A stretch of DNA of 17,770 nucleotides from a virus: the UHGV virus genome UHGV-0302460; one strand, written 5' to 3'. Both the position numbers and the translations under genes were made by a program. Shown here one piece after another: positions 1 through 17,770 of the stretch (the stretch's first letter is position 1; the number at the start of each line of letters is the position of its first letter). The notes under the pieces were generated by a model, which was not told the DNA's origin, made no database searches, and saw only the letters and a list, made by a program, of their open reading frames with translations.

Positions 1-319
1 AGTGATGAGAGCAACAGGCTGAATCAGGGCGTGTTTGTTGATGACTGGGGGCGTCCCGAAAAATATCTGGTGTATAAAAGTCGTCCCGTATCCGGACGGC
101 AGATGGAAACCAAAGAAGTGGATGCAGAGCGAATGCAGACGTCCCGCGCATCTGGTGCAGACGGCGAACAAATTTAAGATGCAGCATTCGCTCTGCATCC
201 ACTTCTTTGGTTTCCATCTGCCGTCCGGATACGGGACGACTTTTATACACCAGATATTTTTCGGGACGCCCCCAGTCATCAACAAACACGCCCTGATTCA
301 GCCTGTTGCTCTCATCACT
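1..319. repeat. Perfect inverted repeat pair at left window edge: arm 1..136 is the reverse complement of arm 184..319, with a 47-bp non-palindromic spacer (137..183)
   Basis: Checked base by base: reverse complement of 1..136 equals 184..319; the match stops at 137/183. Arm 1 starts at the window boundary, so the repeat may continue beyond the window. Confidence 0.9.
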
Positions 320-856
320 GGTCATGGGAATAAAGTCTGGCTCGAGCGCCTCCAGCCAGAAATGAACACCGGCAGAAGGCGTCAGGCTGTTTATGCGCCC
401 GGAAACCATCTGGGCAAACACCTCACCATCGCGCAGCCAGGTACGCAGCATCAGACGTTCCAGCATCGGACGGGTAAACTGCCCGGTGACTTCCGGGCTG
501 ACAGACCATTCACTCCATCGGGTGCGAATCTCCGCAGCCAGGTCACGGGCAATGGCCCCATTGCGTAATACCGGATGTGGCTCGACAATAATCCCGTTTT
601 TCCCCACCACCCGTTCTTCCAGCTTGTCAAATACACCAATAACCAGATCGTGGTTGTTATCAAGGTAACGGGCCTGCTCACGTAACGACACGGCCCCGTA
701 CTGGCTTAGCTGGTCGGCAGTTCGGTTCTCCCGTCGGGCTTTGTGTGTCCGCGTCGTTTTTACGGCTTCATAAGCCTGGATCACCGCACGGGAACGCAGC
801 CTTGCCGCTTTCCATCCTGGTGAAAAAACGCCAATCACATCATCAAGAATTGCCAT
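137..856 (-). CDS. Phage portal protein, lambda-like family, 5' part only; the gene runs into the fold-back repeat
   Basis: ATG at 856..854 overlaps the gpW-like stop (TGATG). The frame is open to the window start. Translation MAILDDVIGVFSPGW...GVFVDDWGRPEKYLVYKSRPVSGRQMETKEVDAERMLHLKFVRRLHQMRGTS has portal-like character and the position after terminase and gpW fits. It was missing from the ORF track because it runs off the window edge. Codons read from 136..1 are the inverted copy of 184..319 and are probably not real portal sequence. Confidence 0.65.
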
Positions 857-1074
857 CAGAACCTCGCCAGCCGGTACCCGGGATGCCCCCGTCGTCGTGT
901 AATCAGAGCCGCAAGGCGGCGCTCCCACTCCTGCCGCCCCTGCCGGATCTCAGATAAGTTTTCCATGGTCATCTGCTGACCATTAAAGGTGACGGATTTT
1001 CCGTCCAGCACCGCCATTTCAGCTTCCGTATAACGCTGAATCATGGCTTCGATATCATTCTGGTTCATAACCAT
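856..1074 (-). CDS. gpW-like head-tail joining protein
   Basis: 72-aa ORF between large terminase and portal, the same position as lambda W. C-terminal RRRGHPGY resembles lambda W RRRGPAGF. Start overlaps the terminase stop. Confidence 0.55.
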   Translation of the reverse strand: MVMNQNDIEAMIQRYTEAEMAVLDGKSVTFNGQQMTMENLSEIRQGRQEWERRLAALITRRRGHPGYRLARF

Positions 1075-3167
1075 CCTCCGGAAGTCAGCCAGGGGTTAAC
1101 ATCGTCAGTTACTGTTTTCTTCCGTTTTTGTTTTTTAACAGGCGTGGATACCGGTTCCGGTGAGGATGACGGTTCGGTACTGTCCTGGACACACTCCAGC
1201 CAGGTTTCCCGGCTCGCCCACTCCGGTGCATCCGGCCAGCGGATCTTTTCGTATCCATGCAGAATGACCAGAGCCTCGGCATACACCATCAGGTCAAAAG
1301 CTTCGTTGGCACCGCGACCCGGCTTACTCCATTTCCCGTCACTGCTCCGCTCTTCATACGTCAGTTCGTCGTAAAACCAGCTCCCCAGCCAGTCAGGGAA
1401 ATGCACATAGCCGGGACCTGGCGAGTCACGCCATAACGCGTTATTCACCCGGTCTTTCAGTGCATCCGTCTGAAGAAGCCAGAGCGGCACATCACCTGCG
1501 GCCTGCGCCCGTCGGCCCGTTCGTCCGGTGTTATCAGGGAATGTACGGGTGATCAGTTTTGCGCGCCGGATGCTGTCGCCCTTAAACAGGTAAATACGTT
1601 TACCAAGGCCATCACGACGGCAACGACGCCAGAATTTATAGGCATTATCAGTGACCCCGTCTTCACCGCCGGAGTCCACCGCCATTGCCATCAGTCGCAT
1701 TTGTTGAGAAGGATCGGAGGCCAGCGGCCAGCTTTTATGAAAAACATCCGTCAGCAGGACATCCCAGTCTTCCGGATAGCTGGCCGGATCAATTCGCTGG
1801 CTCTCCCCGTCGCTGTCACCGCGCAATGACTGCGTGATGTTGTAACGATCAATAATCCAGCGTTCGCCACGGCTGCCATAGCCCGTTACCTGAACCACAA
1901 AACGGCGATGACGTCCCGCCTGCACATCCACTGTCGCCACAAGGAAATTAACGCCATCCGGCACACTGCGGGAAGGAACTGGCTCTGCCCGCTGCTCAAG
2001 CAGTTCACTTTTTCGTTGCTCCATGCTGGCGCGGGGAAGATAAGGTAATCCCCAGTCGGTATTGATAACCGTCTTGAGTGTTTCTTCACTTCCGGTTGTC
2101 TCGTATTCCTGTTCTGCAGTAAGCAGTTTGTAAACGAGTTGCGAGAGTGTCTGGTAAGCAGCTGCCGGACCCTCCATCCAGAATGACGCAATACGTGAGC
2201 GTCGGGGATCACCATAACGACTGCCATCCGCATTGATGGATTCACCATCCCGCAACCAGACCCCACGTCCGTTCAGCTCACGTTTTTGTTCAGGCATAAT
2301 CCGTCCTGAACAGGAAGGACACTGAATATAAGCCGCCTCACTTGCCAGCACGGGATCGGCAATATCACGGAAACCAGCAACCACATCGCCGCAGGGCTGA
2401 AAATACTCACCACAGTGTGGACAAGGCCAGTACCAGCGACGGCGATCGCCACGGTTATAGAGCGACAGTATCCCCGTGGTTGGTGGAGCCTCATGCGGTG
2501 AAGTCCGTCGCCATTTCACATCCTTCACATCCCTGCCGGGGGAACTCTCCACAAGCGTCATACCACTGGACATAAATGTTGTGGTACGTTTTGAGGCAAG
2601 AGAGAAAGCATCCCCCTCGCCATCAATATCTTCCGGAAAACGGTCATAATCCGTCAGCGCGACGCATTTATAATCTGATGAGGACATGATATTGACTGAC
2701 GGCCAGCCGATTTTCAGGTAGTTACCAGCAAGGAATGTTCTGTCATAAACGTTGTTGTCATTTTTGTTCGGACTCAGGCGACTGACCACTTCCGGGCTGA
2801 CGCGAAACGTTCTGGCGAGTCGTTTTTTGGAGTGTTCGCGGGCTTTTTCCTCCGTCATCTGTATGATCAGCATATCAGCAGGATCGCAAATCACGTTGTA
2901 AATCACCCAGCCGTCAATCAGGCCGATAGTCTTGCCGGTTCGTGCCGGGCCAACAAATATCACTGCGTCGTATTCACGCGAGGCCAGGCAGTTCATCGGC
3001 TCAATAACATACGGTGCCACCAGCGGATCCCACGGGACTGAGTTCCCTGCCCCCATGGGCACCCGCATATACTGAGCAACGGCATCAGCAACCCGCATTC
3101 GTCTCGGTGCGCGAAGGATATAACCTGAATCGGTTCGTGCTGCCTTTGCGGTTTCCTGATTCAGCAT
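1065..3167 (-). CDS. Terminase large subunit, lambda gpA-like
   Basis: 700-aa ORF with a Walker A-like GPARTGKT motif and a WPCPHCGEYFQ motif resembling lambda A ACPHCGEEQYL. Its ATG overlaps the stop of the upstream small terminase (TAATG). Confidence 0.85.
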   Translation of the reverse strand: MLNQETAKAARTDSGYILRAPRRMRVADAVAQYMRVPMGAGNSVPWDPLVAPYVIEPMNCLASREYDAVIFVGPARTGKTIGLIDGWVIYNVICDPADMLIIQMTEEKAREHSKKRLARTFRVSPEVVSRLSPNKNDNNVYDRTFLAGNYLKIGWPSVNIMSSSDYKCVALTDYDRFPEDIDGEGDAFSLASKRTTTFMSSGMTLVESSPGRDVKDVKWRRTSPHEAPPTTGILSLYNRGDRRRWYWPCPHCGEYFQPCGDVVAGFRDIADPVLASEAAYIQCPSCSGRIMPEQKRELNGRGVWLRDGESINADGSRYGDPRRSRIASFWMEGPAAAYQTLSQLVYKLLTAEQEYETTGSEETLKTVINTDWGLPYLPRASMEQRKSELLEQRAEPVPSRSVPDGVNFLVATVDVQAGRHRRFVVQVTGYGSRGERWIIDRYNITQSLRGDSDGESQRIDPASYPEDWDVLLTDVFHKSWPLASDPSQQMRLMAMAVDSGGEDGVTDNAYKFWRRCRRDGLGKRIYLFKGDSIRRAKLITRTFPDNTGRTGRRAQAAGDVPLWLLQTDALKDRVNNALWRDSPGPGYVHFPDWLGSWFYDELTYEERSSDGKWSKPGRGANEAFDLMVYAEALVILHGYEKIRWPDAPEWASRETWLECVQDSTEPSSSPEPVSTPVKKQKRKKTVTDDVNPWLTSGGWL

Positions 3168-3661
3168 TACTCCTCCCGCTGTAATTCCTCCTCATCATCC
3201 GCACCTGCTTCGGTCACCCGCAGGGCTATCTGATCGCGCAGATCATCAATAATGGACTGAACACGGCTCACAGCGGCAGGCTGCAGACCGCAGTCACGTT
3301 CAAGAATATCCGGTAATGTCTCCAGCACCTGCACGACCGCTTTTGCCCAGATGGCAAACTCCCGTCTGACATCACTGGCCGGAATGAGTTGTGCCGTTTC
3401 CTGTTCGAACTTAAGACGCTCACGTTCAGACTGATACCAGGCTTTGCGCTCATGCGCGTCCATTTCGCCTTCTGCAACCGGCGGTGGTAATGCCAGAAAT
3501 GCCGACACAATATCAACCACCCGATAAAGCTTGAGGTTGCTTTCATGCCCCCCTGCAACGGGTAGATTTTGCAGCCTTGCCGCAGCAGTCTGGCGATGTA
3601 CACCTGACAGTGCCGCCAGTTGACTGATATTCAGCGTCAGATTTTTTAACTCTCGATCCAT
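3167..3661 (-). CDS. Terminase small subunit, Nu1-like
   Basis: 164-aa ORF directly upstream of, and translationally coupled to, the large terminase. N-terminal HTH-like segment (LTLNISQLAALSGVHRQTAAARL) and acidic C-terminus. A cos-like site lies about 170 bp upstream. Confidence 0.65.
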   Translation of the reverse strand: MDRELKNLTLNISQLAALSGVHRQTAAARLQNLPVAGGHESNLKLYRVVDIVSAFLALPPPVAEGEMDAHERKAWYQSERERLKFEQETAQLIPASDVRREFAIWAKAVVQVLETLPDILERDCGLQPAAVSRVQSIIDDLRDQIALRVTEAGADDEEELQREE

Positions 3662-3824
3662 ACCCGCTCCAGAATGTTTTAAACATGCATCTTGCGAACA
3701 ACTTTAGGCAAACGGTGTTAGTGATGAACAAAAAACAATCAAAATCGACACCACAAAAATAAAACCACTGTAATATCAATACATTACAGCAGTGGTGATG
3801 ACGAATGAAATTTCAAAAACTAGC

Positions 3825-3880
3825 CTTTTTCCGCGACGCTCCCGCCCCGTGGCAGGCCACCCCACCGGAAGGACCCGCCA
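3825..3880 (-). other. Putative cos packaging site (cosQ/cosN-like)
   Basis: Minus strand reads GCGGGTCCTTCCGGTG...CCACG GGGCGGGAGCGT CGCGG. From memory, the lambda right end and cos read ACGGGTCCTTTCCGGTGATCCGACAGGTTACG GGGCGGCGACCT CGCGGG. The putative 12-nt core maps to 3836..3847 and matches the lambda cohesive end at 8 of 12 positions, with conserved flanks. Confidence 0.45.
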
Positions 3881-4114
3881 AAATGAGAGTGATTATCACC
3901 ATTGCTGATGAATAAATTGATGAAAATCATTGAAACGCCTTTCAGCAAGATAACGGCGACGGTCGTTGTTGAACTCCGTAGCTCTGCTACTAAGGTTAAA
4001 AGCATGGCCATCTTTTGCCACCGGCAAATCTTCAATGGATTTCCCCTGCCGGTTTTTTATTCCTCACATTATCGCAGCCCCTCAGTGAAGGGCTGCTGTA
4101 ATGCCTGCTCTTAC

Positions 4115-4477
4115 TCAGTAACGACCGCGCCTTCCGGTAATTTCATACCGGCAAATACCGGACAGCCCGGGGATCGTTATCTGCAGCTGGTTAGCCAGGG
4201 AGTTAATCTCAGCGACCAACACTGGCTTCGTATAGCGCCATGCCGCCAGCCCTTGTCCACAGAAGCTCGCCATATCTTTTTTCTGATCAAACTCATGACA
4301 CTTCATATTGAGCTGCGCACTTAAGCTGTTGCGATGCTGAAGTTCTCCGGTGAAGTAGTCATCCAGGACTTTATAGGCTGCATATTTAAATCCGGGGTTT
4401 AGCCATGCTGCATAATCATAAGCAACAAACTTCCCGCCATATGTTCCACCGTGTACACCGCGCTCAGTAAAAACCAC
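4115..4477 (-). CDS. Hypothetical protein; N-terminus resembles the C-terminal half of a KilA-N domain, possibly a 5'-truncated remnant
   Basis: 120-aa ORF with a GTG start 21 nt after the minus-strand Rz stop. GGTYGGKFVAYDYAAWLNPGF resembles the KilA-N C-terminal motif GTWvHp.lA...A.WLsPeF, but the N-terminal half of the domain is absent. Confidence 0.35.
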   Translation of the reverse strand: MVFTERGVHGGTYGGKFVAYDYAAWLNPGFKYAAYKVLDDYFTGELQHRNSLSAQLNMKCHEFDQKKDMASFCGQGLAAWRYTKPVLVAEINSLANQLQITIPGLSGICRYEITGRRGRY

Positions 4478-4498
4478 AGATTCGTGTTTTTTCTCCAG

Positions 4499-4645
4499 CT
4501 ACTTAATGCGCTGGGTGCGGATATATTCCTGCGCCCCTTCCAGTTGCTTCTGCATCGTCATCAACCGTTCTCTGAGGGTGAAATAATCCCGTTCAGCGGT
4601 GTCTGCCAGTCGGGGGCTGGTTGCATTATCCATGCTGGTGGGTCC
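4499..4645 (-). pseudogene. Rz (i-spanin) C-terminal fragment on minus strand
   Basis: Minus-strand translation ...[50 protein letters not shown] with stop at 4501..4499 matches the lambda Rz C-terminus pattern. Its upstream continuation is broken at 4645/4646. Confidence 0.6.
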
Positions 4646-4913
4646 CGCTGACATGCAGCAGCGTCAGCGTGATGTTGCTGCGATCGATGCAAAATACACG
4701 AAGGAGTTAGCCGATGCGAAAACTGAAAATGAAACTCTGCGCGCTGATGTTGCCGCTGGTCGTAAGCGCCTGCGGGTCAATGCCAGTTGCTCCGCAGCCG
4801 TGCGTGAAGCCACCGGACCCACCAGCATGGATAATGCAACCAGCCCCCGACTGGCAGACACCGCTGAACGGGATTATTTCACCCTCAGAGAACGGTTGAT
4901 GACGATGCAGAAG
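4646..4913 (+). pseudogene. Internal Rz fragment in inverted (plus) orientation
   Basis: Plus-strand translation [88 protein letters not shown] is a contiguous mid-to-C-terminal Rz segment. It lacks the N-terminal TM anchor and the native C-terminus. Confidence 0.6.
4714..4899 (+). CDS. Rz1-like o-spanin lipoprotein, copy 1, nested in the inverted Rz fragment
   Basis: 61 aa: [61 protein letters not shown]. Signal peptide with lipobox-like VVSAC and a proline-rich body, typical of lambda Rz1, in the +1 frame inside Rz. Confidence 0.6.
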
Positions 4914-5222
4914 GCGCTTACGACCAGCGGCAACATCAGCGCGCAGAGTTTCATTTTCAGTTTTCGCATCGGCTAACTCCTTCGTGTATTTTGCATCGAT
5001 CGCAGCAACATCACGCTGACGCTGCTGCATGTCAGCGATGGTGGCGGTCGCCTGCTTCAGCTCACTGACTTTTTTATCACGCTGTTCTTTGTAGGCGATG
5101 GCGTTATCACGGTAATGATTGACCGCCCACGACAGGCAGACGATGATGCAGATAACCAAAGCATAAATAATCGCGGCGACTCTGAGTGAGCTGAAGCAGT
5201 CGATCGCCACCATCGCTGACAT
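4912..5222 (-). pseudogene. Rz (i-spanin) N-terminal fragment on minus strand, with TM anchor
   Basis: Minus-strand translation ...[93 protein letters not shown] matches the lambda Rz N-terminus [21 protein letters not shown].... The expected native start near 5184 is replaced by a junction; the only ATG is a fortuitous one at 5222. The fragment ends at the 4911/4912 junction. Confidence 0.6.
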
Positions 5223-5526
5223 GCAGCAGCGTCAGCGTGATGTTGCTGCACTCGATGCAAAGTACTCGAGAGAATTAGCCAATGCGAAAGCTGAAAATGA
5301 AACTCTGCGCGCTGATGTTGCCGCTGGTCGTCGTCGGTTGCACATCAAAGCAGTCTGTCAGTCAGTGCGTGAAGCCACCACCGCCTCCGGCGTGGATAAT
5401 GCAGCCTCCCCCCGACTGGCAGACACCGCTGAACGGGATTATTTCACCCTCCGGGAACGACTGGTAATGATGCAGGCCCAACTTGAAGGTGCTCAGCAAT
5501 ACATAACCGAGCAGTGTTTAAAGTAA
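5185..5526 (+). pseudogene. Rz (i-spanin) copy 2, N-terminally truncated, lacking the TM anchor
   Basis: Translation (L)[113 protein letters not shown] is very close to lambda Rz from about residue 45 to the end. There is an in-frame stop at 5164..5166 and the first ATG is at 5221. This resembles the rzpR pseudogene situation in the K-12 Rac prophage. Confidence 0.7.
5282..5467 (+). CDS. Rz1-like o-spanin lipoprotein, copy 2
   Basis: 61 aa: [61 protein letters not shown], nearly identical to lambda Rz1 as I remember it. Lipobox VVGC; nested in the +1 frame of Rz copy 2. Confidence 0.8.
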
Positions 5527-5663
5527 AATCTTAACTACAATATGATTCATTTTGATGATTGTTTCATAAGGAACAGTGAAGTAAGATCTAAGAGGAGTTA
5601 AATTTTATACAGTATAATCATAATATTGCAGCAAGGTGGTTATAATTGAAAGAATATTTAGAT

Positions 5664-7121
5664 ATGAATACATCTCATGTAAGAGTTGTTACTCATATGT
5701 GTGGGTTCCTGGTTTGGCTCTATAGTCTTTCAATGTTGCCACCAATGGTTGTAGCATTGTTTTATAAAGAAAAAAGCCTGTTCGTTTTCTTTATAACTTT
5801 CGTTATATTTTTTTGCATTGGTGGCGGAGCGTGGTATACAACTAAGAAATCTGGCATTCAATTACGTACCCGTGATGGGTTTATTATAATTGTAATGTTT
5901 TGGATTTTGTTTTCTGTTATTAGTGCATTCCCTTTATGGATTGACTCAGAACTTAATTTAACGTTCATTGATGCTCTGTTTGAAGGGGTTTCTGGAATAA
6001 CAACAACAGGAGCAACTGTAATTGATGATGTTAGTTCATTACCTCGGGCATATTTGTACTATCGGTCACAGTTAAATTTTATAGGTGGTTTAGGAGTTAT
6101 TGTTCTGGCGGTTGCTGTATTGCCATTATTGGGTATTGGTGGTGCAAAGCTTTATCAGTCAGAAATGCCGGGGCCATTTAAGGATGACAAACTCACTCCC
6201 CGCCTGGCCGATACGTCACGGACACTGTGGATAACTTATTCTTTATTAGGTATTGCTTGTATTGTCTGTTATAGACTTGCAGGAATGCCTTTGTTTGATG
6301 CTATTTGTCACGGGATTTCCACAGTTTCGCTTGGTGGTTTCTCAACTCATAGCGAGAGTATCGGATATTTTAATAACTATTTGGTTGAGCTGGTGGCTGG
6401 TTCTTTTTCCCTGCTATCGGCTTTCAACTTCACTCTTTGGTATATTGTTATTAGCAGGAAAACGATAAAACCTTTAATCAGAGATATTGAACTTCGTTTC
6501 TTTCTGTTAATAGCCTTAGGGGTGATCATTGTTACCTCTTTCCAGGTCTGGCATATAGGTATGTATGACTTGCATGGAAGTTTTATTCATTCGTTTTTTC
6601 TTGCCAGCTCCATGCTCACTGATAATGGTTTAGCTACGCAGGATTATGCAAGTTGGCCCACGCACACGATAGTGTTTTTGCTGTTGTCAAGTTTCTTTGG
6701 GGGATGTATAGGTTCAACTTGTGGTGGAATTAAGTCACTTCGATTTCTTATACTTTTCAAACAAAGCAAACACGAGATAAATCAGCTTTCTCATCCCAGA
6801 GCGTTGTTGAGTGTAAATGTAGGAGGGAAGATAGTTACAGATCGTGTAATGAGGTCTGTATGGAGTTTCTTTTTTCTTTATACTCTCTTCACGGTGTTTT
6901 TTATACTGGTGTTAAATGGTATGGGATATGATTTTCTTACATCATTTGCAACAGTGGCTGCATGTATTAATAATATGGGATTAGGTTTTGGGGCTACTGC
7001 ATCGTCATTCGGAGTGCTTAATGACATTGCAAAATGTTTAATGTGCATAGCTATGATTCTTGGTCGCCTTGAAATTTATCCTGTTATTATATTGTTTTCA
7101 GGTTTTTTTTGGCGCTCCTAA
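5664..7121 (+). CDS. trkG: TrkH/TrkG-family potassium uptake membrane protein
   Basis: Reading from the ATG at 5664 gives 485 aa starting MNTSHVRVVTHMCGFLVWLYSLSM..., which I recognise as E. coli TrkG (a Rac prophage gene). It is a multi-pass membrane protein with GIGG-type selectivity-filter-like motifs (LLGIGG, GFGATA). The coding region is strongly AT-rich compared with its flanks. The ORF-track start at 5646 is a TTG upstream extension. Confidence 0.88.
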   Translation: MNTSHVRVVTHMCGFLVWLYSLSMLPPMVVALFYKEKSLFVFFITFVIFFCIGGGAWYTTKKSGIQLRTRDGFIIIVMFWILFSVISAFPLWIDSELNLTFIDALFEGVSGITTTGATVIDDVSSLPRAYLYYRSQLNFIGGLGVIVLAVAVLPLLGIGGAKLYQSEMPGPFKDDKLTPRLADTSRTLWITYSLLGIACIVCYRLAGMPLFDAICHGISTVSLGGFSTHSESIGYFNNYLVELVAGSFSLLSAFNFTLWYIVISRKTIKPLIRDIELRFFLLIALGVIIVTSFQVWHIGMYDLHGSFIHSFFLASSMLTDNGLATQDYASWPTHTIVFLLLSSFFGGCIGSTCGGIKSLRFLILFKQSKHEINQLSHPRALLSVNVGGKIVTDRVMRSVWSFFFLYTLFTVFFILVLNGMGYDFLTSFATVAACINNMGLGFGATASSFGVLNDIAKCLMCIAMILGRLEIYPVIILFSGFFWRS

Positions 7122-7258
7122 TATATGGCTGATTTATAATTGTGAGTTTAATATTATGTTGACTCACTCATTGATCCAATACCTAACTTTACCAGCAACC
7201 CCTCCGTCCCCAGTAGCACTGGCTGCTGGGGTGCGTTTTATTCATAAAGCAAGGCTGT

Positions 7259-8050
7259 ATGAGCGAGAAATTAAAGATAGTCTATCGCCCATTACAAGAA
7301 TTGTCACCGTATGCGCACAACGCCAGGACGCACAGTACTGAGCAGGTGGCACAACTGGTAGAAAGTATTAAGCAATTCGGCTGGACTAATCCGGTGCTGA
7401 TTGACGAAAAGGGCGAAATTATTGCGGGTCACGGTCGTGTTATGGCGGCTGAAATGCTCAAAATGGATTCTGTTCCGGTCATTGTTCTGTCTGGCCTGAC
7501 GGATGAGCAGAAAAAGGCGTACCGCCTGGCAGATAATCGCCTGCCGATGAATGCTGGCTGGGATGAAGATCTGTTGCGGATGGAGCTGTCGGACCTAATC
7601 AATGCTGATTTTGATGTCTCCCTGACAGGCTTCATCCCGACAGAAATTGATGAACTGTTGACGGATGTTTTGCCCGGTACAGGAAATGAGGAGGAGCCGT
7701 ATACGACGAAAATTGATACGCCTGTTTATGAGCCGTCGGGCGGTAAACCGGATATCAGTGAACTGTACGACGATACGAAAACTCAGGAGCTGATCAGCCG
7801 GATACGTTCGGCGTCCCTTGAGCCTGATATTGAGAAATTCCTCCTGTGTGCGGCAGAACGTCACACGGTGTTTAATTTCAGCAGAATTGCGGACTATTAC
7901 GCTCACGCCCCCTCTGAAATTCAGTGTTTTTTCGAGGAGTCGGCGCTGGTGATCATTGATTATCAGCAGGCTATTGAAAATGGATTTGTCCGGATGACGC
8001 AGCGCATGGTGGAGATCATGCATGGTGGTGAGGAGGAGGAATATGCGTGA
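7259..8050 (+). CDS. ParB-like nuclease domain protein
   Basis: The 263-aa N-terminus IVYRPLQELSPYAHNARTHSTEQVAQLVESIKQFGWTNPVLIDEKGEIIAGHGRVMAA fits the ParB/Srx N-terminal domain pattern (GxGR motif). The position after trkG matches the ynaK region of Rac. Confidence 0.7.
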   Translation: MSEKLKIVYRPLQELSPYAHNARTHSTEQVAQLVESIKQFGWTNPVLIDEKGEIIAGHGRVMAAEMLKMDSVPVIVLSGLTDEQKKAYRLADNRLPMNAGWDEDLLRMELSDLINADFDVSLTGFIPTEIDELLTDVLPGTGNEEEPYTTKIDTPVYEPSGGKPDISELYDDTKTQELISRIRSASLEPDIEKFLLCAAERHTVFNFSRIADYYAHAPSEIQCFFEESALVIIDYQQAIENGFVRMTQRMVEIMHGGEEEEYA

Positions 8051-8975
8051 TGATTTTTGCGCCTTTATTCTGACTCACGGGCGACCGGACAAAGTTCTGA
8101 CTTACCGGACGTTGCGTCGTGCTGGCTATACCGGGAAAATTTTTATCGTTGTTGATGATGAAGATAAGACACGGAATCAGTACATGGCTGAATTTGGTGA
8201 ACAGGTGCTGGTGTTTTCCAAAGCCGATATCGCCAGTCGTTTTGACGAAGCCGATAATTTCTGTGACCGCCGCTCAATTTTTTACGCCCGTAATGCCTGT
8301 TTCGACCTGGCAAAACTGGTCGGGTGTAAATACTTCATTCAGCTCGATGATGATTATCACGAGTTCCAGTTTCGGGTGGATCGCAACTATGACCAGGCCT
8401 ATTTTCCGATAAGGAAACTGGATGCGATCCTTTCTGAAATGCTGGCGTACTACGAATCAATACCTGCTCTTTCCATCGCTATGTCGCAGGGCGGGGATTT
8501 TCTTGGTGACAATGGCGGCCATGCTTCGTGGGTGAAACGCAAGGCAATGAACAGCTTTATCTGTTCGGTTGATCGACCGTTCTCATTCATGGGGCGCATT
8601 AACGAGGATGTGAATACGTACACGAATCTCGGTCGCTGTGGTGAATTGTTTATGACGATCGGTGCTGTCCAGTTAGGGCAGAAACAGACGCAGAAAAACA
8701 GCGGCGGAATGACCGAGCTGTATCTGGATTCCGCAACCTACGTTAAAAGTTTTTACTCCGTCATGTATGCGCCGTCGTGCGTAAAAATCTCACTGATGGG
8801 TGCCAGCCATAAACGCATTCACCATCAGGTCACCTGGAACAACGCTGCAGTAAAAATCCTTCACGAAAAATACAGGAAGAAGACACCCTGCATATCAATG
8901 GGGGTGACAAATGATTCCGTATTCGAAAGTCGAGTCTCTGGCAGCGTGCCGGATGACTGCACAACAAATCGCTGA
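8043..8975 (+). CDS. Hypothetical protein with possible GT-A glycosyltransferase-like features; function unknown
   Basis: ATG at 8043 follows a strong SD (GAGGAGGAGGA, 8029..8039) and overlaps the ParB-like stop, so it is preferred over the ORF-track start at 8022. N-terminal FILTHGRPDKVL...KIFIVVDDED and a later QLDDDY motif resemble a GT-A Rossmann-like fold with a DxD motif; this is a weak, motif-level call. Confidence 0.5.
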   Translation: MRDDFCAFILTHGRPDKVLTYRTLRRAGYTGKIFIVVDDEDKTRNQYMAEFGEQVLVFSKADIASRFDEADNFCDRRSIFYARNACFDLAKLVGCKYFIQLDDDYHEFQFRVDRNYDQAYFPIRKLDAILSEMLAYYESIPALSIAMSQGGDFLGDNGGHASWVKRKAMNSFICSVDRPFSFMGRINEDVNTYTNLGRCGELFMTIGAVQLGQKQTQKNSGGMTELYLDSATYVKSFYSVMYAPSCVKISLMGASHKRIHHQVTWNNAAVKILHEKYRKKTPCISMGVTNDSVFESRVSGSVPDDCTTNR

Positions 8976-9162
8976 CGTTCTGGATGTTGATCTGAACCGA
9001 CTGAAAGAAAATCGGGAAGCAATGACAGATTTTTATGCGGCCATCCGTAAGGGCAGAGCGAAAGGTGAAGCCGAGTTACGAGCGGCATTGTTTAAGCTTG
9101 CCAGAAAAGGGGATGCCTTTGCTCTGCGCGAACTACTCAGGGTGGATAAAAATCAGGACTAA
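8911..9162 (+). CDS. Small HTH-like protein, possibly terminase-associated
   Basis: 83-aa ORF immediately upstream of the small terminase. The helix-turn-helix-like segment MTAQQIADVLDVDLNRL is followed by a basic helical region. Start is uncertain (8911 or 8953); it overlaps the upstream gene by 65 nt if 8911 is used. Confidence 0.45.
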   Translation: MIPYSKVESLAACRMTAQQIADVLDVDLNRLKENREAMTDFYAAIRKGRAKGEAELRAALFKLARKGDAFALRELLRVDKNQD

Positions 9163-9165
9163 CTG

Positions 9166-10260
9166 ATGAGCAGACCGGACTGGGGGGCGTTGCAGCAGGA
9201 GTATATTGCTGAATACACCCGCTCCGGTATATCTCCGGTGGCATGGTGTGAAGCAAGGGGACTGAATTACGCAACAGCCCGTCGTTACATCAAAAAAACT
9301 CCGAAAAATGCGCAGACAGAAATGTGCAAAACTGCGCAAAAAAGTGCGCAGAAAAAATCTGCGCAGACTGCACAAAAGCGGAACGAAAAATCTCAGGAAA
9401 AAAAGCCAGTATTCGATGCGGGCCTGAATGAGGGCGACGCGGAGGAATTTTCGTTCTGTCCCGATGAATTCGGCATTTCTGACCAGCAGGCTAAGTTTGC
9501 GATGCTTGTTGCTCAGGGTAAAAAGCCGACAGAGGCGTACCGACTAGCCGGTTATGAGGGGCAAGGTGCGACAGCTAACAGCAACGCCAGTCGTATGCTT
9601 AGAAATGCCAGGGTTTTTCGCGCTATCAGCTACTTCCGCAATCAGTACCAGAAACGCTATACCGCAGACCTGGATTTACTAGTGAGTCAGTTGATGGCTA
9701 TTGTCCTGGCCGACCCCAATCAGCTTGCACAATTTCGCCGTGTTAACTGCCGTTATTGCTGGGGCGAGAATCATCTCTACCAGTGGCGCGATATAGCAGA
9801 ATTCGACAAGGCAGCGGCGCAGGCTTCCAGAGATGGCAAACCCGAACCGGAATATGGAGGCCTCGGCTTTGTTGATAACGCCATACCCAATCCGGACTGC
9901 CCGAAGTGCTGCGGTGAGGGAACGGGACAGCTTTATATGGCTGATACCACTCTGCTTGATGGGGATGCGCGGCAATTATATGCAGGGGCAAAATTCGGAA
10001 AATTCGGCGTTGAGATCCTGCTGGAGGATAAGGCTGCCGCCCGGCGTGAATTGTTGCGTTTGTTTTCTGCTGGCGGGGCTTTATGTGCAGATAAACGGCT
10101 ACAGGAACTGGAAATTGAACGGCGCAGAATGGAAAACCAGAAGCTGCGCAAAGAGATCGAAACGGTGGAAGATAATGAACATCCCCAGCCTGTGGCGATC
10201 AATATTAATGTGGTTGATGCCAGAGTAAGGAGTGATGAAGATGATCTCTCCGACGCTTAA
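9166..10260 (+). CDS. Terminase small subunit (P27-like family), long form with Cys4 motif
   Basis: Central segment ISDQQAKFAMLVAQGKKPTEAYRLAGYEG...NASRMLRNARV matches the terminase small-subunit signature. It sits directly upstream of the large terminase. It also has a low-complexity K/A/Q-rich stretch, a CRYCWG...CPKCCGEG zinc-ribbon-like motif and a C-terminal coiled-coil-like segment. Confidence 0.7.
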   Translation: MSRPDWGALQQEYIAEYTRSGISPVAWCEARGLNYATARRYIKKTPKNAQTEMCKTAQKSAQKKSAQTAQKRNEKSQEKKPVFDAGLNEGDAEEFSFCPDEFGISDQQAKFAMLVAQGKKPTEAYRLAGYEGQGATANSNASRMLRNARVFRAISYFRNQYQKRYTADLDLLVSQLMAIVLADPNQLAQFRRVNCRYCWGENHLYQWRDIAEFDKAAAQASRDGKPEPEYGGLGFVDNAIPNPDCPKCCGEGTGQLYMADTTLLDGDARQLYAGAKFGKFGVEILLEDKAAARRELLRLFSAGGALCADKRLQELEIERRRMENQKLRKEIETVEDNEHPQPVAININVVDARVRSDEDDLSDA

Positions 10261-11542
10261 TGTGCCTCAGGCGCGATTTCTTTCAATGCCCCATAAATTT
10301 AAAGCCTATATTGCTGGTTTTGGCTCGGGCAAAACATGGGTTGGGTGTGGCGGCATATGCAAGGGGATTTGGGAGCATCCAGGTATAAATCAGGGATATT
10401 TTGCGCCAACGTATCCCCAAATTCGCGATATTTTTTACCCTACAGTGGAAGAAGTTGCTGCTGACTGGGGATTGAACGTAAAAATTAATGAGGGAAATAA
10501 AGAGGTTCACTTTTATTACGGACGCCAGTATCGGGGAACCACTATCTGCAGATCGATGGAGAAGCCACAAACGATCGTCGGTTTCAAAATTGGTAATGCG
10601 TTGGTGGATGAACTGGACATTTTGCCGAAGGAAAAAGCCAGAACGGCGTGGCGCAAGATAATTGCACGTATGCGTTATAAGATTGATGGACTTCGCAACG
10701 GTATTGACGTTACAACCACGCCGGAAGGATTCAAATTTGTCTACGAGCAGTTTGTTAAAGCCGTGCGTGAAAAAACAGAGCTGGCCTCACTGTATGGTCT
10801 GGTGCAGGCATCTACTTTCGATAATGAAAAGAACCTGCCAGCAGATTACATTCCTTCGCTTCTTGAATCATACCCTCCAGAGCTGATTAAAGCCTATCTT
10901 CGAGGACAGTTTACTAACCTGACAAGTGGTACTGTTTACCATCAGTTTGACCGGAAACTGAATAATTGCGAAGAAGTGGAGCAGCCAGGGGAGCCGATTT
11001 ATATTGGGATGGATTTTAACGTTGGAAAGATGGCGGGAATCGTCCATGTGCTGCGTTTGGGGCTTCCATGTGCGGTAACTGAAATCATCAATGCCTACGA
11101 TACGCCGGATATGATCCGCATCATTAAAGAACGCTTCTGGCTGTATGATGGGAATGATTACCGGAAAGTGAGGGAAATTTATATTTATCCAGATGCTTCC
11201 GGGGATTCCAGAAAATCAAGTAACGCAAGTACGACGGATATAGCCCAGCTTAAGCAGGCTGGTTTTAACGTTGTGGTGAACAGCTCGAACCCGCCAGTAA
11301 AAGATCGCGTTAACTCAATGAATGCAATGTTCTGCAATGCCAATGGTGAGCGTCGCTATAAAGTTAATGTGAAGCGTTGCCCGTTATATGCCGAATCTCT
11401 GGAGCAACAGGTCTGGGATGAGAAGGGGGAGCCTGATAAAAAATCTGGCAATGATCACCCGAATGATGCCGGAGGTTATTTCATCGTTAAGCAATTCCCT
11501 ATTGTCAAACCGACCGGAAGAGTCACATCACTTCGGATTTAA
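10241..11542 (+). CDS. Terminase large subunit
   Basis: Walker A-like AGFGSGKTW near the N-terminus, nuclease-type acidic residues in the C-terminal half, and a position between small terminase and portal. The ATG at 10241 is preferred because of the AAGGAG at 10227..10232; alternative starts are the GTG at 10232 and the ATG at 10235. Confidence 0.85.
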   Translation: MISPTLNVPQARFLSMPHKFKAYIAGFGSGKTWVGCGGICKGIWEHPGINQGYFAPTYPQIRDIFYPTVEEVAADWGLNVKINEGNKEVHFYYGRQYRGTTICRSMEKPQTIVGFKIGNALVDELDILPKEKARTAWRKIIARMRYKIDGLRNGIDVTTTPEGFKFVYEQFVKAVREKTELASLYGLVQASTFDNEKNLPADYIPSLLESYPPELIKAYLRGQFTNLTSGTVYHQFDRKLNNCEEVEQPGEPIYIGMDFNVGKMAGIVHVLRLGLPCAVTEIINAYDTPDMIRIIKERFWLYDGNDYRKVREIYIYPDASGDSRKSSNASTTDIAQLKQAGFNVVVNSSNPPVKDRVNSMNAMFCNANGERRYKVNVKRCPLYAESLEQQVWDEKGEPDKKSGNDHPNDAGGYFIVKQFPIVKPTGRVTSLRI

Positions 11543-11544
11543 TT

Positions 11545-12951
11545 ATGGCTGATATATCAACACCCAACCTCGACTATAACGATATGCTGGAGGCGTGGGA
11601 TATTAACGACGCACTGATGGGCGGTACGCTTGAAATGCGCAGGCAGGGGGAAAATTATCTCCCAAAATGGCCTAACGAAGATGAAGACGCTTATAAAAAA
11701 CGCCTGTCTGTGGCTACGCTACTTCCTGTGTATGAAGAAAGCATCAAGCAAAATATTGGGCGCATATTTGCAGAGCCGACAGTATTGAGTGAGGAAACGC
11801 CGGCAAAAATCAGGGAATATGCAGAAAATATCGACATGGAGGGGAGCCGACTGGATGTGTGGGCGCAGCAATTTTTCAGCCTCGCATTTCAGTATGGTGT
11901 GGCACATGCGCTGGTGGACTATCCACGAACGGATATGAAAGAGATTCGTACAAAAGCCGATGAAAACGCGACCGGTGGTCGTCCGTACGTTACGATGCTG
12001 AATCCACGCCAGGTTATTGGATGGAAATCGAAAGTTGAAAAAGGGAAAGTTGTTCTCACTGATTTGCGTATAAAAGAGGTCATCATTATTGATGGTGATG
12101 ATTTCGGGCAGAAGAAGGTGGAGCAGATCCGCCATATTATGCCCCGTCGAGTTGAAATTTATCGACGTAGCGAAGGCACTAATGGCGAATCTGTCTGGAC
12201 GCTTCATGAGTCATGGAATACCAGCCGTGATGATATTCCTCTGGTAACACTGTACACGAAGAAAACAGGATTTATGCGTGGTACACCGCCATTGCTTAAT
12301 CTTGGCTTGCTGAATATCAAGCACTGGCAAAGCCAGAGCGAGCAGGACAATATTCTTCATGTTACCCGCGTTCCATTGCTGGTGGCCTACGGGCTGGACA
12401 GGAATGAAGAACTGACGGTTGGTGCATCCACCGCTACGATTTTTGAGGACAGAACAAAAAATGGCCTCGAATATGTTGAACATAGTGGCGCAGCGATAGA
12501 ATCTGGCGAAACATCACTTGAGAAGCTGGAAAATCAGATGCGTCATGCCGGCGCTAAACTTCTGCGTGCTGAAAATACATCCACCAAATCTGTTGATCAG
12601 ACTAATGAAGAGCGAATGCAGGAAAACTCGCCGCTTTATACAATGGCGAACTCCCTCGAAGATGCCCTCGATAATATTCTCCAGATAATGGCGGAATGGA
12701 TCGGAGAGAGTTGCGGTGGCAATGTGGATGTGCGCACTGAACTGGATGTATCTGCCCAGGTGTTTGACTCATCCTCCGCGCTGGCTGTTCAGTCATTGCG
12801 TCAGGGCGGTGATATACGTCAGATTGATGCGGTTCGGGTGTTGCAGGCGTTGAAATTTATCGATCAGGATTCCCGTCCAGAGGAAGTGATCGATGAATTA
12901 AAAAATCAGAGTGTAATGCTGATGGAAATCAATGATGCAAACCGTGAATGA
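11545..12951 (+). CDS. Phage portal protein
   Basis: 468-aa ORF immediately after the large terminase and before the head-morphogenesis gene, with size and position typical of a portal. No motif was verified. Confidence 0.7.
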   Translation: MADISTPNLDYNDMLEAWDINDALMGGTLEMRRQGENYLPKWPNEDEDAYKKRLSVATLLPVYEESIKQNIGRIFAEPTVLSEETPAKIREYAENIDMEGSRLDVWAQQFFSLAFQYGVAHALVDYPRTDMKEIRTKADENATGGRPYVTMLNPRQVIGWKSKVEKGKVVLTDLRIKEVIIIDGDDFGQKKVEQIRHIMPRRVEIYRRSEGTNGESVWTLHESWNTSRDDIPLVTLYTKKTGFMRGTPPLLNLGLLNIKHWQSQSEQDNILHVTRVPLLVAYGLDRNEELTVGASTATIFEDRTKNGLEYVEHSGAAIESGETSLEKLENQMRHAGAKLLRAENTSTKSVDQTNEERMQENSPLYTMANSLEDALDNILQIMAEWIGESCGGNVDVRTELDVSAQVFDSSSALAVQSLRQGGDIRQIDAVRVLQALKFIDQDSRPEEVIDELKNQSVMLMEINDANRE

Positions 12952-14047
12952 ACGGCTGCGTGATGAATCAATTGCTCATGCAGTCTGGATATCCCGCTAT
13001 AGCACTGGCGTGGCTGCCAGAATGGTGAAAATACTGAATGACAGCGATGCGGAACTTACTGCTCGCCTGCTGATAGCACTGGACAGCCTCGATCCAGGTA
13101 ATTTTACCGTTAAGCGCCTGGAGTCACTTCTGGCGAGCGTCAGAGAGGTTAACCGCACTGCTATTAACAGCATGTTTACCAGTCTCTCCGGAGAGCTGAA
13201 CGAGCTGGCAATTTATGAGGCTGGTTATCAGTTAAGTCTGTTTGATTCTATGCTACCTGATTTTGTTGCTGATGTTCACCCTCTGGTTGGTATCTCTCCT
13301 GATGCACTTTATGCCGCTGCAATGGCGCGACCATTCCAGGGACGACTGCTCAGTGAGTGGGCCTCAGATCTTGAGGCGGATCGGCTCAGACGCATAACAA
13401 ATACAGTGCGTCAGGGTTTTTTGCTGGGGGATACCAATGAGCAGATCGCAAGAAAAATTCGGGGACATGTCAGTAAGGGATTTCAGGATGGTGCATTGCA
13501 GATGAGCCGGGCTAATGCGGCCAGCATTGCAAAAACAGCGGTTGGACATCTTGCTGCTACTGCCCGTGAGAGTTTTGCCAGCGCGAATAATGATTTGATT
13601 AAGGGTAAGCAATGGTTATCAACGCTTGATAATCGTACTACGCCACAATGTCGAATCAGGGATCGCCTCAAATATACGCTGAATAATAAACCTGTAGGTC
13701 ACAGCGTGCCTTATTTGCAGGGGCCGGGAAAAATTCATTTCTGCTGCCGCTCAACGGAAACGTTCATTCTGAAATCAGCGAAGGAACTGGGTATTGATGT
13801 TCGCGATATTTCCCCGGCTGAGCGGGCCAGCATGGATGGCGTGGTGGCCGGAGATACAACCTACAGGGAATGGTTTTTGCGTCAGCCTTACACCAGACAA
13901 AAACAGATTGTGGGGGAAACCCGAGCAAAGCTGATTCGGGATGGTGGTATGTCGCCAGATGAATTTTACACCGATAAAGGCGAATGGCTGACGCTGAAGC
14001 AGCTCCGTGAGCGTGATGCACAGGTATTCAGAAAAGCAGGGATTTAA
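12932..14047 (+). CDS. Head morphogenesis protein (Mu F-like / SPP1 gp7-like minor head protein)
   Basis: 371 aa following the portal. Contains the characteristic ...LSTLDNRTTPQCRIRD... motif seen in Mu F-like head morphogenesis proteins. Confidence 0.7.
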   Translation: MMQTVNERLRDESIAHAVWISRYSTGVAARMVKILNDSDAELTARLLIALDSLDPGNFTVKRLESLLASVREVNRTAINSMFTSLSGELNELAIYEAGYQLSLFDSMLPDFVADVHPLVGISPDALYAAAMARPFQGRLLSEWASDLEADRLRRITNTVRQGFLLGDTNEQIARKIRGHVSKGFQDGALQMSRANAASIAKTAVGHLAATARESFASANNDLIKGKQWLSTLDNRTTPQCRIRDRLKYTLNNKPVGHSVPYLQGPGKIHFCCRSTETFILKSAKELGIDVRDISPAERASMDGVVAGDTTYREWFLRQPYTRQKQIVGETRAKLIRDGGMSPDEFYTDKGEWLTLKQLRERDAQVFRKAGI

Positions 14048-14066
14048 ATAAATCATTTATTACAAC

Positions 14067-14093
14067 AGGCTACCTTCGGGTGGCCTTTTTTAT
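14067..14093 (+). terminator. Putative rho-independent terminator (UUCG tetraloop hairpin plus T-tract)
   Basis: AGGCTACC-TTCG-GGTGGCCT forms an 8-bp stem (one G-T wobble) with a TTCG loop, followed by TTTTTTATT, just downstream of the head-morphogenesis stop. Confidence 0.55.
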
Positions 14094-14151
14094 TGCTGCG
14101 ATCCGGATGGTGAGCAGCGTAACTGTCGGAAGACTTAAACCAGGTACTAAT

Positions 14152-14916
14152 ATGAAACTGAAAACGGTCGAGATTAACGGAAAACAATACGCAGAAATTG
14201 ATACTGCTGGCCTGCCAGTTTATGTGCACGACGATGGTAAAGAAATTGGCTTCGATGCACCGCTGGCGACAAAAAAAATTACAGAGCTTAATGGCGAGGC
14301 AAAAAATCATCGCCTGGCTAAAGAAGCTGCAGAGGAAAAACTGGCTAAGTTTGCCGCTATCGAAGACCCGAAGAAGGCGATCGAGGCACTGGAAATGCTG
14401 TCAAAAATCGACCAGAAAAAGCTGCTCGATGCGGGACAGGTTGACCAGGTTAAGGCAGAAATTACGAAAAATTTTCAGCAGCAATTAGATGAAGAAAAGC
14501 AACGCTCTCAGATGCTGGAGAAGCAGCTTTACGATTCTATGATTGGCGGTAGTTTTGCGGGTTCAAAATATATTGCCGATAAAATTGCGATCCCGGCAGA
14601 TTTATTACAAGCCCGCTTCGGGCAGGCATTCAAAGTGGAAGAAGGGAGGATCGTTGCTTATGACGCTTCCGGCAACAAAATTTATTCCCGCGCGAAGCCT
14701 GGCGAACTGGCGCAGTTTGATGAGGCGCTGGAGTTCCTTGTCGAAAATTACCCTCAGAAAGACTACATCCTGAAAGCCAGTGGCAACAATGGCGGCGGCT
14801 CCCGTCCGACACAGCATGATATTGGTCAGAAAACGATGAAACGCTCTGCTTTTGATGCACTGGATGTTGCAGGTAAGCAAAACGCATTGAAAGACGGTAT
14901 CACAATCGTTGATTAA
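14152..14916 (+). CDS. Scaffolding protein (putative)
   Basis: About 254 aa, charged and predicted helical (EEKLAKFAAIEDPKKAIEALEMLSKIDQKKLL...), located immediately upstream of the major capsid gene. Start is uncertain (ATG 14152 preferred; ATG 14107 possible). The ORF-track start at 14080 would lie inside the terminator hairpin. Confidence 0.55.
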   Translation: MKLKTVEINGKQYAEIDTAGLPVYVHDDGKEIGFDAPLATKKITELNGEAKNHRLAKEAAEEKLAKFAAIEDPKKAIEALEMLSKIDQKKLLDAGQVDQVKAEITKNFQQQLDEEKQRSQMLEKQLYDSMIGGSFAGSKYIADKIAIPADLLQARFGQAFKVEEGRIVAYDASGNKIYSRAKPGELAQFDEALEFLVENYPQKDYILKASGNNGGGSRPTQHDIGQKTMKRSAFDALDVAGKQNALKDGITIVD

Positions 14917-15014
14917 CACATTTGTCAGCTTCCGGATGGGAGCTGGTGTCAGGGCTGGATAGCTCATTACTCCATCTATTCACAATTACGCAAATTTTTA
15001 AGGAATATTTAATT

Positions 15015-16154
15015 ATGGCTGGAAATACCCTGACCGGGTTGATCCCGACTATTTATACCGCCCTGGATGTTGTATCCCGTGAGCAGGTAGGTTTTATCCC
15101 TGCGGTAGCAAAAAACGCAAAAGCTGACGCCGCAGCAAAAGATCAGACGGTAACCGCGCCAGTTGCGCCTGAGGCGAAAACCGAAGATATCGTACCGGGG
15201 CCGTCAGCTCCGAATACCGGTGATCAAAATATTGGCACTGTTGATGTAAAAATTACTAAATCCAAAATGGCACCGGTTAAATGGAATGGTGAAGAACAAC
15301 TGGCTCTTGGCCCTTCAGGGACTTACAACACCATTCTGGCTGATCAGTTCAAGCAGGCTTTTCGCGCCCTTGCAAACGAGGTTGAGGCTGATCTTGGTGC
15401 GTTGTATTTCGGTGCTTCCCGCGCCGTGGGAACCGCAGGGACAACGCCGTTTGGTGTTAAAGATGATCTTTCTGATGCTGCTCTGGCTCGTCAGGTTCTG
15501 GAGGATAACGGCGCACCGACAACCGATCTGCAGATGGTGCTTGGCTCCACTGCCATTGCTAATTTGCGCGGAAAACAGTCTGTATTGTTTAAAGTGAATG
15601 AATCCGGCACTGAACAGCTACTGCGTGAGGGCGTGTTGGGGCGTCTGGAGGGATTCAATATTCACAGTTCGGCAGGTGTGAAACGAGCGCCAAAGGTTGC
15701 TGCAACTGGTTATCTCGTGAATGGAGAGAAAAAAGAAGGCGATGTTCTTATTTCCATTGATACTGGTTCGGGGAGTATTTCTGCAGGTCAGATTGTTACG
15801 TTCGCTGGTGATCCGAATCAGTATGTTGTGGCAGCAGCGACCAGCAATCTGATTACTCTTGCAGCGCCCGGACTGCGTCAGGATCTGGCCGATGATACTG
15901 CCATCACAGTTGTTGGGGCCTTTACGGCAAATATGGCGTTTGATCGCAACGCGTTTCTGCTGGCATCCCGTACTCCGGCAATGCCGGAAGGTGGCGATAA
16001 TGCTGATGATGTAATGAATGTTACGGACCCGATTTCAGGGATTACGTTCCAGATTGCACTGTATCGTCAGTATCGCCAGGTGCGCTATGAAGTTGGACTG
16101 GCATGGGGTGTTTCATCAGTGAAGCCGGCACATGGTTGTCTGATTCTTGGTTAA
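15015..16154 (+). CDS. Major capsid protein (putative)
   Basis: ATG at 15015 follows AAGGA. About 379 aa, downstream of the scaffold and followed by a strong terminator. Segments such as TPFGVKDDLSDAALARQVLEDNGAP and GVLGRLEGFNIHSS resemble phage coat proteins. Confidence 0.7.
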   Translation: MAGNTLTGLIPTIYTALDVVSREQVGFIPAVAKNAKADAAAKDQTVTAPVAPEAKTEDIVPGPSAPNTGDQNIGTVDVKITKSKMAPVKWNGEEQLALGPSGTYNTILADQFKQAFRALANEVEADLGALYFGASRAVGTAGTTPFGVKDDLSDAALARQVLEDNGAPTTDLQMVLGSTAIANLRGKQSVLFKVNESGTEQLLREGVLGRLEGFNIHSSAGVKRAPKVAATGYLVNGEKKEGDVLISIDTGSGSISAGQIVTFAGDPNQYVVAAATSNLITLAAPGLRQDLADDTAITVVGAFTANMAFDRNAFLLASRTPAMPEGGDNADDVMNVTDPISGITFQIALYRQYRQVRYEVGLAWGVSSVKPAHGCLILG

Positions 16155-16164
16155 ACATTCAAAC

Positions 16165-16187
16165 GGGGCTTCGGCCCCATTTTTAAT
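16165..16187 (+). terminator. Putative rho-independent terminator (UUCG tetraloop hairpin plus T-tract)
   Basis: GGGGC-TTCG-GCCCC followed by ATTTTTAAT, 11 nt after the capsid stop. Confidence 0.55.
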
Positions 16188-16196
16188 GGGGGGCAT

Positions 16197-16373
16197 ATGG
16201 CCGGATTAACTAAAGAGCAAAGAGCACAGCGTGAAGCCGCACAAAAAACGCAAATTGAGTTAGTGGTTATGGTGACCGATTATCAGATGTTTCCCGGCGC
16301 ACCAACTATCGCTAATGTTCATCCTGATGAAGTTGACAACTGGAAGGCTGTGGGCTGGAAAACTCAGGAGTAA
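16197..16373 (+). CDS. Small hypothetical phage protein (58 aa)
   Basis: ATG at 16197 is preceded by a G-rich SD-like stretch. Translation MAGLTKEQRAQREAAQKTQIELVVMVTDYQMFPGAPTIANVHPDEVDNWKAVGWKTQE. It exactly fills the gap between the capsid terminator and the next gene. It falls below the ORF-track size cut-off. Confidence 0.4.
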   Translation: MAGLTKEQRAQREAAQKTQIELVVMVTDYQMFPGAPTIANVHPDEVDNWKAVGWKTQE

Positions 16374-16376
16374 CAC

Positions 16377-16772
16377 ATGATCACTTACGTGACCTGTGAT
16401 GACGTTGATAATGCGTTTGGGAACGCCTGGACGAGTGAGAACGCTAAAAATAAAGCTGTTTTAATGGCTAATGCCTGGCTTAATGGCTTCAACCTGAAAA
16501 TTAACCCATCCCGTATTCCGGAAGAGGTAAAACTTGCGGGAGCATATGCAGCCAGAATTGCCTCATTCGGTAAGTTGTTTCAGCAGAAAAATGATTCTGG
16601 CGTTGTTATCAGTAAAGCCGTGTCGGCTGACGGGGTCAGTGTATCGAAATCATTTTCTGAGTTGCCAGCAAACAGCACTGCATTGCTTGAACCCGATTTA
16701 CAGCTTGCGATAGCACTGCTGAAACCGTACGGACTTAGTCGCTCACAAGTCAGGGTTGTGAGGGGGGGATAA
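16377..16772 (+). CDS. Head-tail connector / head completion protein (gp6-like, putative)
   Basis: 131 aa with a good RBS (AGGAG). Size and position after the capsid are typical of a head-tail connector protein. Confidence 0.45.
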   Translation: MITYVTCDDVDNAFGNAWTSENAKNKAVLMANAWLNGFNLKINPSRIPEEVKLAGAYAARIASFGKLFQQKNDSGVVISKAVSADGVSVSKSFSELPANSTALLEPDLQLAIALLKPYGLSRSQVRVVRGG

Positions 16773-17563: not shown

Positions 17564-17770
17564 GTTGAAGGATCAGATCACGCATCCTCCCGACAACACA
17601 GACCATTCCGTGGCAAAGCAAAAGTTCAGAATCAGCCAGTTGGCGCTTGTTGTGAATGACCGTTTTCAAGAGCCTCTGCATAAGGAAGGTTATTCTGGAT
17701 ATAAATAACTCCGTAATTTGCAGCTTTCGAAATAACCCCGATCCCACGCTGAACAGCAATCGTACCGTTC
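17356..17770. repeat. Perfect inverted repeat pair at right window edge: arm 17356..17491 is the reverse complement of arm 17635..17770, with a 143-bp spacer
   Basis: Checked base by base; arms are 136 bp and the match stops at 17492/17634. Arm 1 lies inside the gp10-like gene; arm 2 ends at the last base of the window. Confidence 0.9.

Follow-up and report, generated by a model that had tools for sequence, protein, structure and literature searches.

The stretch of viral DNA analysed here (17,770 nucleotides of UHGV virus genome UHGV-0302460, hereafter the window) very probably holds two ordinary Rz/Rz1 spanin cassettes, one from a lambdoid phage and one from a prophage identified as Rac-like by its trkG gene, which have been scrambled by an artefact of sequence construction. 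The picture that the window presents as written, of broken Rz genes around intact Rz1 genes, arises because the sequence contains five blunt fold-back joins. The real cassettes would each contain a complete Rz gene, encoding an i-spanin with an N-terminal transmembrane segment, and an o-spanin gene (Rz1) embedded in its +1 frame. The two Rz1 alleles, and the two Rz alleles reconstituted with them, are all catalogued already.

Disruption of the outer membrane by the Rz-Rz1 complex is the last step of lysis; residues 1-24 of Rz anchor it in the inner membrane, and the protein tolerates almost no C-terminal shortening (PMC5295617). That o-spanin function needs the i-spanin, as a preliminary description of this DNA had stated, is established lambda biology (PMC5295617). 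By analogy with lambda, the Rz1 proteins encoded here would be exported and lipidated at Cys20, after which sorting would take them to the outer membrane; they would bind the periplasmic C-terminus of Rz, forming a complex that disrupts the outer membrane after the endolysin.

Two prophages and their spanin genes

The window is filled by Escherichia coli prophage DNA from two phages. Its left part (137..5184) belongs to a lambdoid phage that is close to phage cdtI (98.7% across the Rz region) and whose genes here lie on the minus strand: those for the portal, the large terminase (1065..3167), a DUF1441 protein (3167..3661) and an ORF11CD3 protein (4115..4477), and Rz/Rz1. From 5185 to 15200, the window is colinear with a Rac-like prophage of strain APEC E14033 (99.75% identity), running from inside Rz through trkG (5646..7121, plus strand), the landmark that marks the right-hand prophage as Rac-like, to a ParB-like gene, terminase, portal and head genes. 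A gene with a TAGT domain (8022-8975; PF20691, ‘GREB1-related protein’ in RefSeq) is located in this prophage after the ParB-like gene and before the small terminase gene. Downstream of the head genes, an ORF of 135 amino acids with no assigned function (17156..17563) has the end of an IS903 element (IS5 family; 17533-17634) inserted at its 3' end.

Two intact Rz1 ORFs, each with a start, a lipobox cysteine, a proline-rich body and a stop, had been reported in the preliminary description, and their coordinates, profile matches and lipoboxes all agree with that report. Copy 1 (4714..4899, plus strand) and copy 2 (5282..5467, plus strand) are both complete ORFs of 61 codons, matching the PF06085 (Rz1) profile with 66.8 bits (E 1.4e-18) and 69.4 bits (E 2.1e-19), respectively, against a gathering cut-off of 27.9 bits; no NCBIfam model matches either copy. 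Both signal peptides contain four Lys/Arg among their first seven residues and lead to a lipobox (scored by a regular expression modelled on PROSITE PS51257) with the cysteine at position 20 (VSAC followed by G in copy 1, VVGC followed by T in copy 2), and neither protein has an Asp at +2, as expected for outer-membrane sorting. The mature part of each contains 10-11 prolines and a second cysteine.

The two copies share 48 of 62 aligned positions. Alignment to lambda Rz1, which had been proposed as a check, gives 88% identity for copy 2 and 75% for copy 1; in its mature part, copy 2 does not differ from K-12 RzoR, and copy 1 is a different allele. Copy 2 is the orthologue of rzoR of K-12 Rac, located just upstream of trkG, and its exact protein is found on eight contigs, flanked each time by an endolysin gene and trkG. 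The exact protein of copy 1 is found on at least 999 contigs, under the name ‘Rz1 family lipoprotein’. A Shine-Dalgarno sequence (GAAGGAG, 4700-4706) precedes copy 1. The ribosome-binding region of copy 2 (5260-5285) reads GAGAGAA, as compared with the GAAGGAG of copy 1 (4692-4716) and K-12 rzoR; this variant is also present in natural loci, such as L024.

The same description had every Rz frame around these ORFs truncated or rearranged, which holds for the sequence as written: Rz homology is split into four pieces (72-88% identity to lambda Rz), none of which contains a complete frame. Two pieces of the left-phage gene retain their native minus-strand orientation, namely the 3' end (4499..4645; codons 108-155 and the stop, matching positions 78-125 of the PF03245 profile) and the 5' part (4912..5184; nt 6-278, including the transmembrane segment). 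Between them, a flipped block of 268 nt (4646..4913, plus strand; nt 153-420, codons 52-140) contains the whole of Rz1 copy 1 in the +1 frame of the Rz homology. The fourth piece (5185..5526, plus strand) belongs to the Rac-like Rz, from nt 124 (codon 42) to the stop; its codons 42-154 embed copy 2, again in the +1 frame, and it is written without a transmembrane segment. A full-length cognate i-spanin, with both the N-terminal transmembrane segment and a complete C-terminus, is missing from the sequence as written and present once the flips are undone. By analogy with lambda, the window as written would encode no working i-spanin, and as reconstructed would encode two ordinary spanin pairs.

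Two further Rz1 remnants, absent from the preliminary description, lie in native orientation on the minus strand: one (4969..4874) is the signal peptide as far as Ala19, breaking right before the lipobox cysteine, and the other (4645..4561) comprises the C-terminal 27 codons.

Fold-back joins and the Rz genes that they divide

Read against the intact Rz of strain AR_0085, the window runs backwards to nt 322, forwards from nt 153 to nt 420, and backwards again from nt 278 to nt 6; at 5184/5185 the reading turns once more, and the Rac-like Rz continues forwards from nt 124. Positions 4646-4771 are the reverse complement of 4912-5037 (126 nt, 100%), and positions 4815-4913 that of 4547-4645 (99 nt, 100%), such that only 43 nt of the flipped block (4772-4814) are single-copy. 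Together with the two ends of the window, this gives five fold-back joins (136/137, 4645/4646, 4913/4914, 5184/5185 and 17634/17635), at each of which the sequence jumps by 47-169 nt and then continues on the opposite strand. The left terminal fold-back (1..136) repeats 184-319 exactly, as its reverse complement, across a loop of 47 nt; the right terminal fold-back (17635..17770) does the same for 17356-17491 across a loop of 143 nt, and stands in place of the true run into IS903.

In all four joins at which the sequence folds back upon itself, the arms are perfect over 99-136 nt, with zero divergence, and the joins are blunt (0, 0, 2 and 0 nt of shared sequence). The fifth join, 5184/5185, has arms that are 93% identical, only because its two sides come from different Rz alleles, and falls within a 133-nt stretch that is exactly common to natural copies of both alleles. 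The window looks like a whole contig with fold-back tails: both end pieces are 136 nt long, with perfect arms and blunt joins. An excerpt from a real chromosome would not have such ends, and we therefore take the sequence as a whole to contain construction artefacts.

Blunt joins (0-2 nt), exact reverse complements of nearby sequence and end pieces of equal length are also consistent with editing or concatenation in silico, in which pieces were copied, reverse-complemented and pasted. Such editing is highly improbable in our view; the lengths of the pieces (136, 268, 271 and 136) resemble those of reads or fragments, and deliberate editing would here be indistinguishable from an artefact introduced by an assembler or scaffolder.

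When the block at 4646..4913 is exchanged for the reverse complement of its 43-nt core plus five missing bases, the result is an Rz of 155 amino acids with Rz1 embedded. This reconstructed protein is found exactly in public data (WP_431307504.1 among others, 11 contigs), and six of the eight loci shown have the gene order holin-endolysin-Rz-ORF11CD3-DUF1441-terminase, the remaining two being a contig that starts at the endolysin and a jumbled metagenome scaffold. The preliminary description had named a complete Rz in a correctly assembled locus as the observation that would count against its reading, and this is largely what is found, as undoing the flip yields a catalogued Rz. All 18 related loci of the left phage contain a single colinear Rz; in 10 loci this gene is 100% identical to the flipped block, in the opposite orientation. 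All related left-phage loci also pass colinearly through the portal gene at the point where positions 1..136 of the window fold back. What has been lost in the window is orientation only, plus five bases. The reconstructed left-phage locus would consist of 137..4645, the reverse complement of 4772..4814, 4912..5184 and CTCAT, leading into an endolysin gene, and the Rac-like one of an endolysin gene, Rz nt 1-123 and the sequence from 5185 on.

The reconstructed left-phage Rz ends in ...EYIRTQRIK (4499-4520, minus strand), without a cysteine matching C152 of lambda Rz. By analogy with lambda, such an allele would rely on the disulfide of Rz1, which in copy 1 involves Cys30.

A comparable result comes from natural copies of the Rac-like allele. 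Positions 5052..5184, read on the other strand, correspond to Rz nt 6-138; among the 16 IMG/VR loci whose Rz allele is the one that starts at 5185, this segment is base-identical in 14. The Rz frame is open over 153-154 codons in 15 of these 16 loci and cut short in the other (L035); where the copy-2 protein occurs exactly, the open Rz frames span 158-159 codons. Ten Rac-like loci that share the ParB gene of the window contain a complete Rz of 154 amino acids, or at least the embedded Rz1, between the endolysin gene and trkG.

In most natural copies of the Rac-like allele (L029-L044, L024), Rz starts with GTG rather than ATG, and the gene tables of several NCBI records (L023-L026, L050, L052) list only Rz1 at this locus. 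One metagenome scaffold (ENA ERZ28600532 scaffold_33722, L014) contains a colinear Rac-like Rz with an in-frame TAG at about codon 35 (positions ~110-120), Rz1 being intact; this may be a natural case in which Rz is broken and Rz1 is not, or it may reflect a sequencing error.

An independent assembly bears directly on the right-hand end of the window. The MEGAHIT contig ERZ27269943 k141_17825 (ENA metagenome, L028) is identical to positions 7156..17634 (10,479 nt) and has the same IS903 insertion at 17533, but beyond 17634 it runs on into IS903, with no fold-back. This is the only join (17634/17635) that an independent assembly contradicts directly; the others are judged indirectly, by their absence from sequence collections. 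The internal junctions occur in none of 5,426 complete E. coli genomes and none of 50,697 phage records, and two junctions searched as exact strings have no match in IMG/VR, GTDB genomes or JGI metagenomes. The proteins of the chimeric ORFs 4707..5222 (minus strand) and 4599..4976 (plus strand) have no database record, and lookup of a 101-residue Rz fragment returned only an unrelated 623-nt scaffold with an in-frame stop.

Origin of the joins

We infer that the internal and terminal junctions share a technical origin, and infer likewise what that origin was: chimeric reads or a mis-oriented assembly join would be the likeliest source of the fold-backs. The window resembles known fold-back chimeras in that each join leads into reverse-complemented sequence from close by, 47-169 nt away, also at contig ends, and in that a join is absent from an independent assembly. 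It differs in that the published pairing implies shared bases at the join, of which there are 0-2 here. Fold-back artefacts of library preparation, amplification and assembly are also the subject of PMC12870357 and PMC13141652.

The bluntness of the joins counts against an artefact, when set beside the pairing at short inverted repeats in published fold-back models; in addition, inverted repeats such as these, perfect over 99-126 nt and separated by loops of 140-169 nt, could persist in a living cell. Chimeras of multiple-displacement amplification form by pairing at short inverted repeats. The PDSM fold-back model similarly has short inverted repeats pair (PMC10908179). Neither is established as the specific mechanism, as the inverted repeat or microhomology at the joins amounts to 0, 0, 2 and 0 nt.

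Several other routes to the same structure were considered and rejected. Traversal of a de Bruijn graph via an inverted repeat needs k-1 shared bases, and 0-2 are present. Contig ends set by a fixed k-mer do not fit, as the window runs 102 nt into IS903 before it folds back and the Rac-like part starts 15 nt ahead of the first difference between the two Rz alleles, distances for which no single k will serve. Concatenation of contigs with 136-nt tails does not account for the internal pieces. Homologous recombination between oppositely oriented prophages would yield colinear hybrid genes, not head-to-head joins.

A real and very recent rearrangement is unlikely in our judgement. It would comprise a nested inverted duplication in one Rz and a head-to-head illegitimate join to the Rac-like Rz, inactivating both i-spanins, with both Rz1 ORFs surviving by chance in a form of prophage decay like that of K-12 Rac. 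In formal terms, the geometry (D' / B-C-D / B') matches a tandem inversion duplication that has been remodelled. Tandem inversion duplications consist of forward, inverted and forward copies with remodelled junctions, are usually kilobases in size and are selected as amplifications; this geometry was reportedly described by Kugelberg and Roth in Salmonella. The window fits such a structure in its geometry, but not in its size (268 nt) or its lack of a selectable amplified gene.

Support for a real event also comes from K-12 Rac, where Rz is 5'-truncated at about codon 8 and rzoR is intact, and from scaffold L014, with its in-frame TAG in Rz and intact Rz1. Survival of both Rz1 ORFs is, moreover, unremarkable (31% times 47%): a random 268-nt block within Rz contains all of Rz1 31% of the time, and a random 5' truncation leaves Rz1 whole 47% of the time, so the pattern of intact Rz1 and broken Rz is not beyond chance. 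Against a biological event, five fold-backs within 17.8 kb are hard to account for, particularly as two of them lie exactly at the ends with equal arms of 136 nt; one is contradicted by an otherwise identical independent contig; the arms have not diverged, and no second occurrence was found in more than 5,400 genomes or in other collections; and it is orientation alone that has been lost. The ‘recent disruption’ suggested in the preliminary description survives only in the trivial sense that the duplicated arms show zero divergence.

A bolder version of the same idea is that inverted duplications arose in a burst over short distances, scrambling the spanin genes of both resident prophages and leaving two orphan o-spanin genes; this we consider very unlikely. 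If the fold-backs were real, one orphan Rz1 would be newly co-oriented with the late operon of the Rac-like prophage, and expression of the orphans as free outer-membrane lipoproteins would be possible.

The proposal that selection keeps Rz1 for a function that does not involve Rz, whether as a lipoprotein moron or as a toxic or lysis lipoprotein, strikes us as improbable in the extreme. In its favour, rzoR is intact beside a pseudogene in K-12, and overproduced RzoD of the K-12 prophage DLP-12 has been reported to be toxic, its mRNA being regulated (PMC9782134). However, the window contains two unmutated copies of common alleles and nothing more, and nearly all natural loci with these alleles keep Rz, with no population of orphan copies. 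No trace of selection is possible, because arms that are 100% identical mean that the breaks are too recent. The ‘lipoprotein moron’ raised in the preliminary description thus finds no support, there being no pattern of divergence, no independent occurrence, and a survival of Rz1 that lies within chance.

Known spanin systems and implications

As in lambda, Rz1 lies wholly within the +1 frame of Rz, and encodes a 19-residue signal peptide, a lipidated Cys20, a second cysteine at position 29 or 30 and a proline-rich mature part. In contrast to lambda, there is no complete Rz as written, a difference that ceases to be one of kind once the flips are undone, and the left-phage Rz allele contains no cysteine equivalent to C152.

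The rzpR (pseudogene)/rzoR/trkG region of K-12 Rac represents the same locus as that of copy 2: there too Rz1 directly precedes trkG, the mature protein matches that of copy 2 exactly, and the Rz partner is without its 5' end. In K-12, however, approximately the first seven codons of Rz have been lost by a deletion fusing the gene to ydaW, whereas the break in the window is at codon 42 and the missing part of Rz adjoins it, flipped. In addition, the rest of the prophage in the window, from terminase to head genes, is intact, unlike that of K-12 Rac. The rzpD/rzoD genes of DLP-12 are another Rz/Rz1 pair resident in E. coli, and many matches to the genes analysed here are annotated as rzoD or rzpD; in contrast to the window, both are annotated as intact, and the toxicity of RzoD is an effect of overproduction and not of an orphan gene (PMC9782134).

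The window offers nothing that bears on a role of Rz1 without Rz. A real rearrangement would be a minor and modestly interesting case of a prophage decaying through inverted duplication, and would leave a state resembling K-12 Rac, from which a 5'-truncated Rz with an intact rzoR is known already. The finding is of use chiefly as a caution: an apparent ‘orphan o-spanin’ pattern, which invites ideas of lipoprotein morons, vanishes once the local strand flips are seen.
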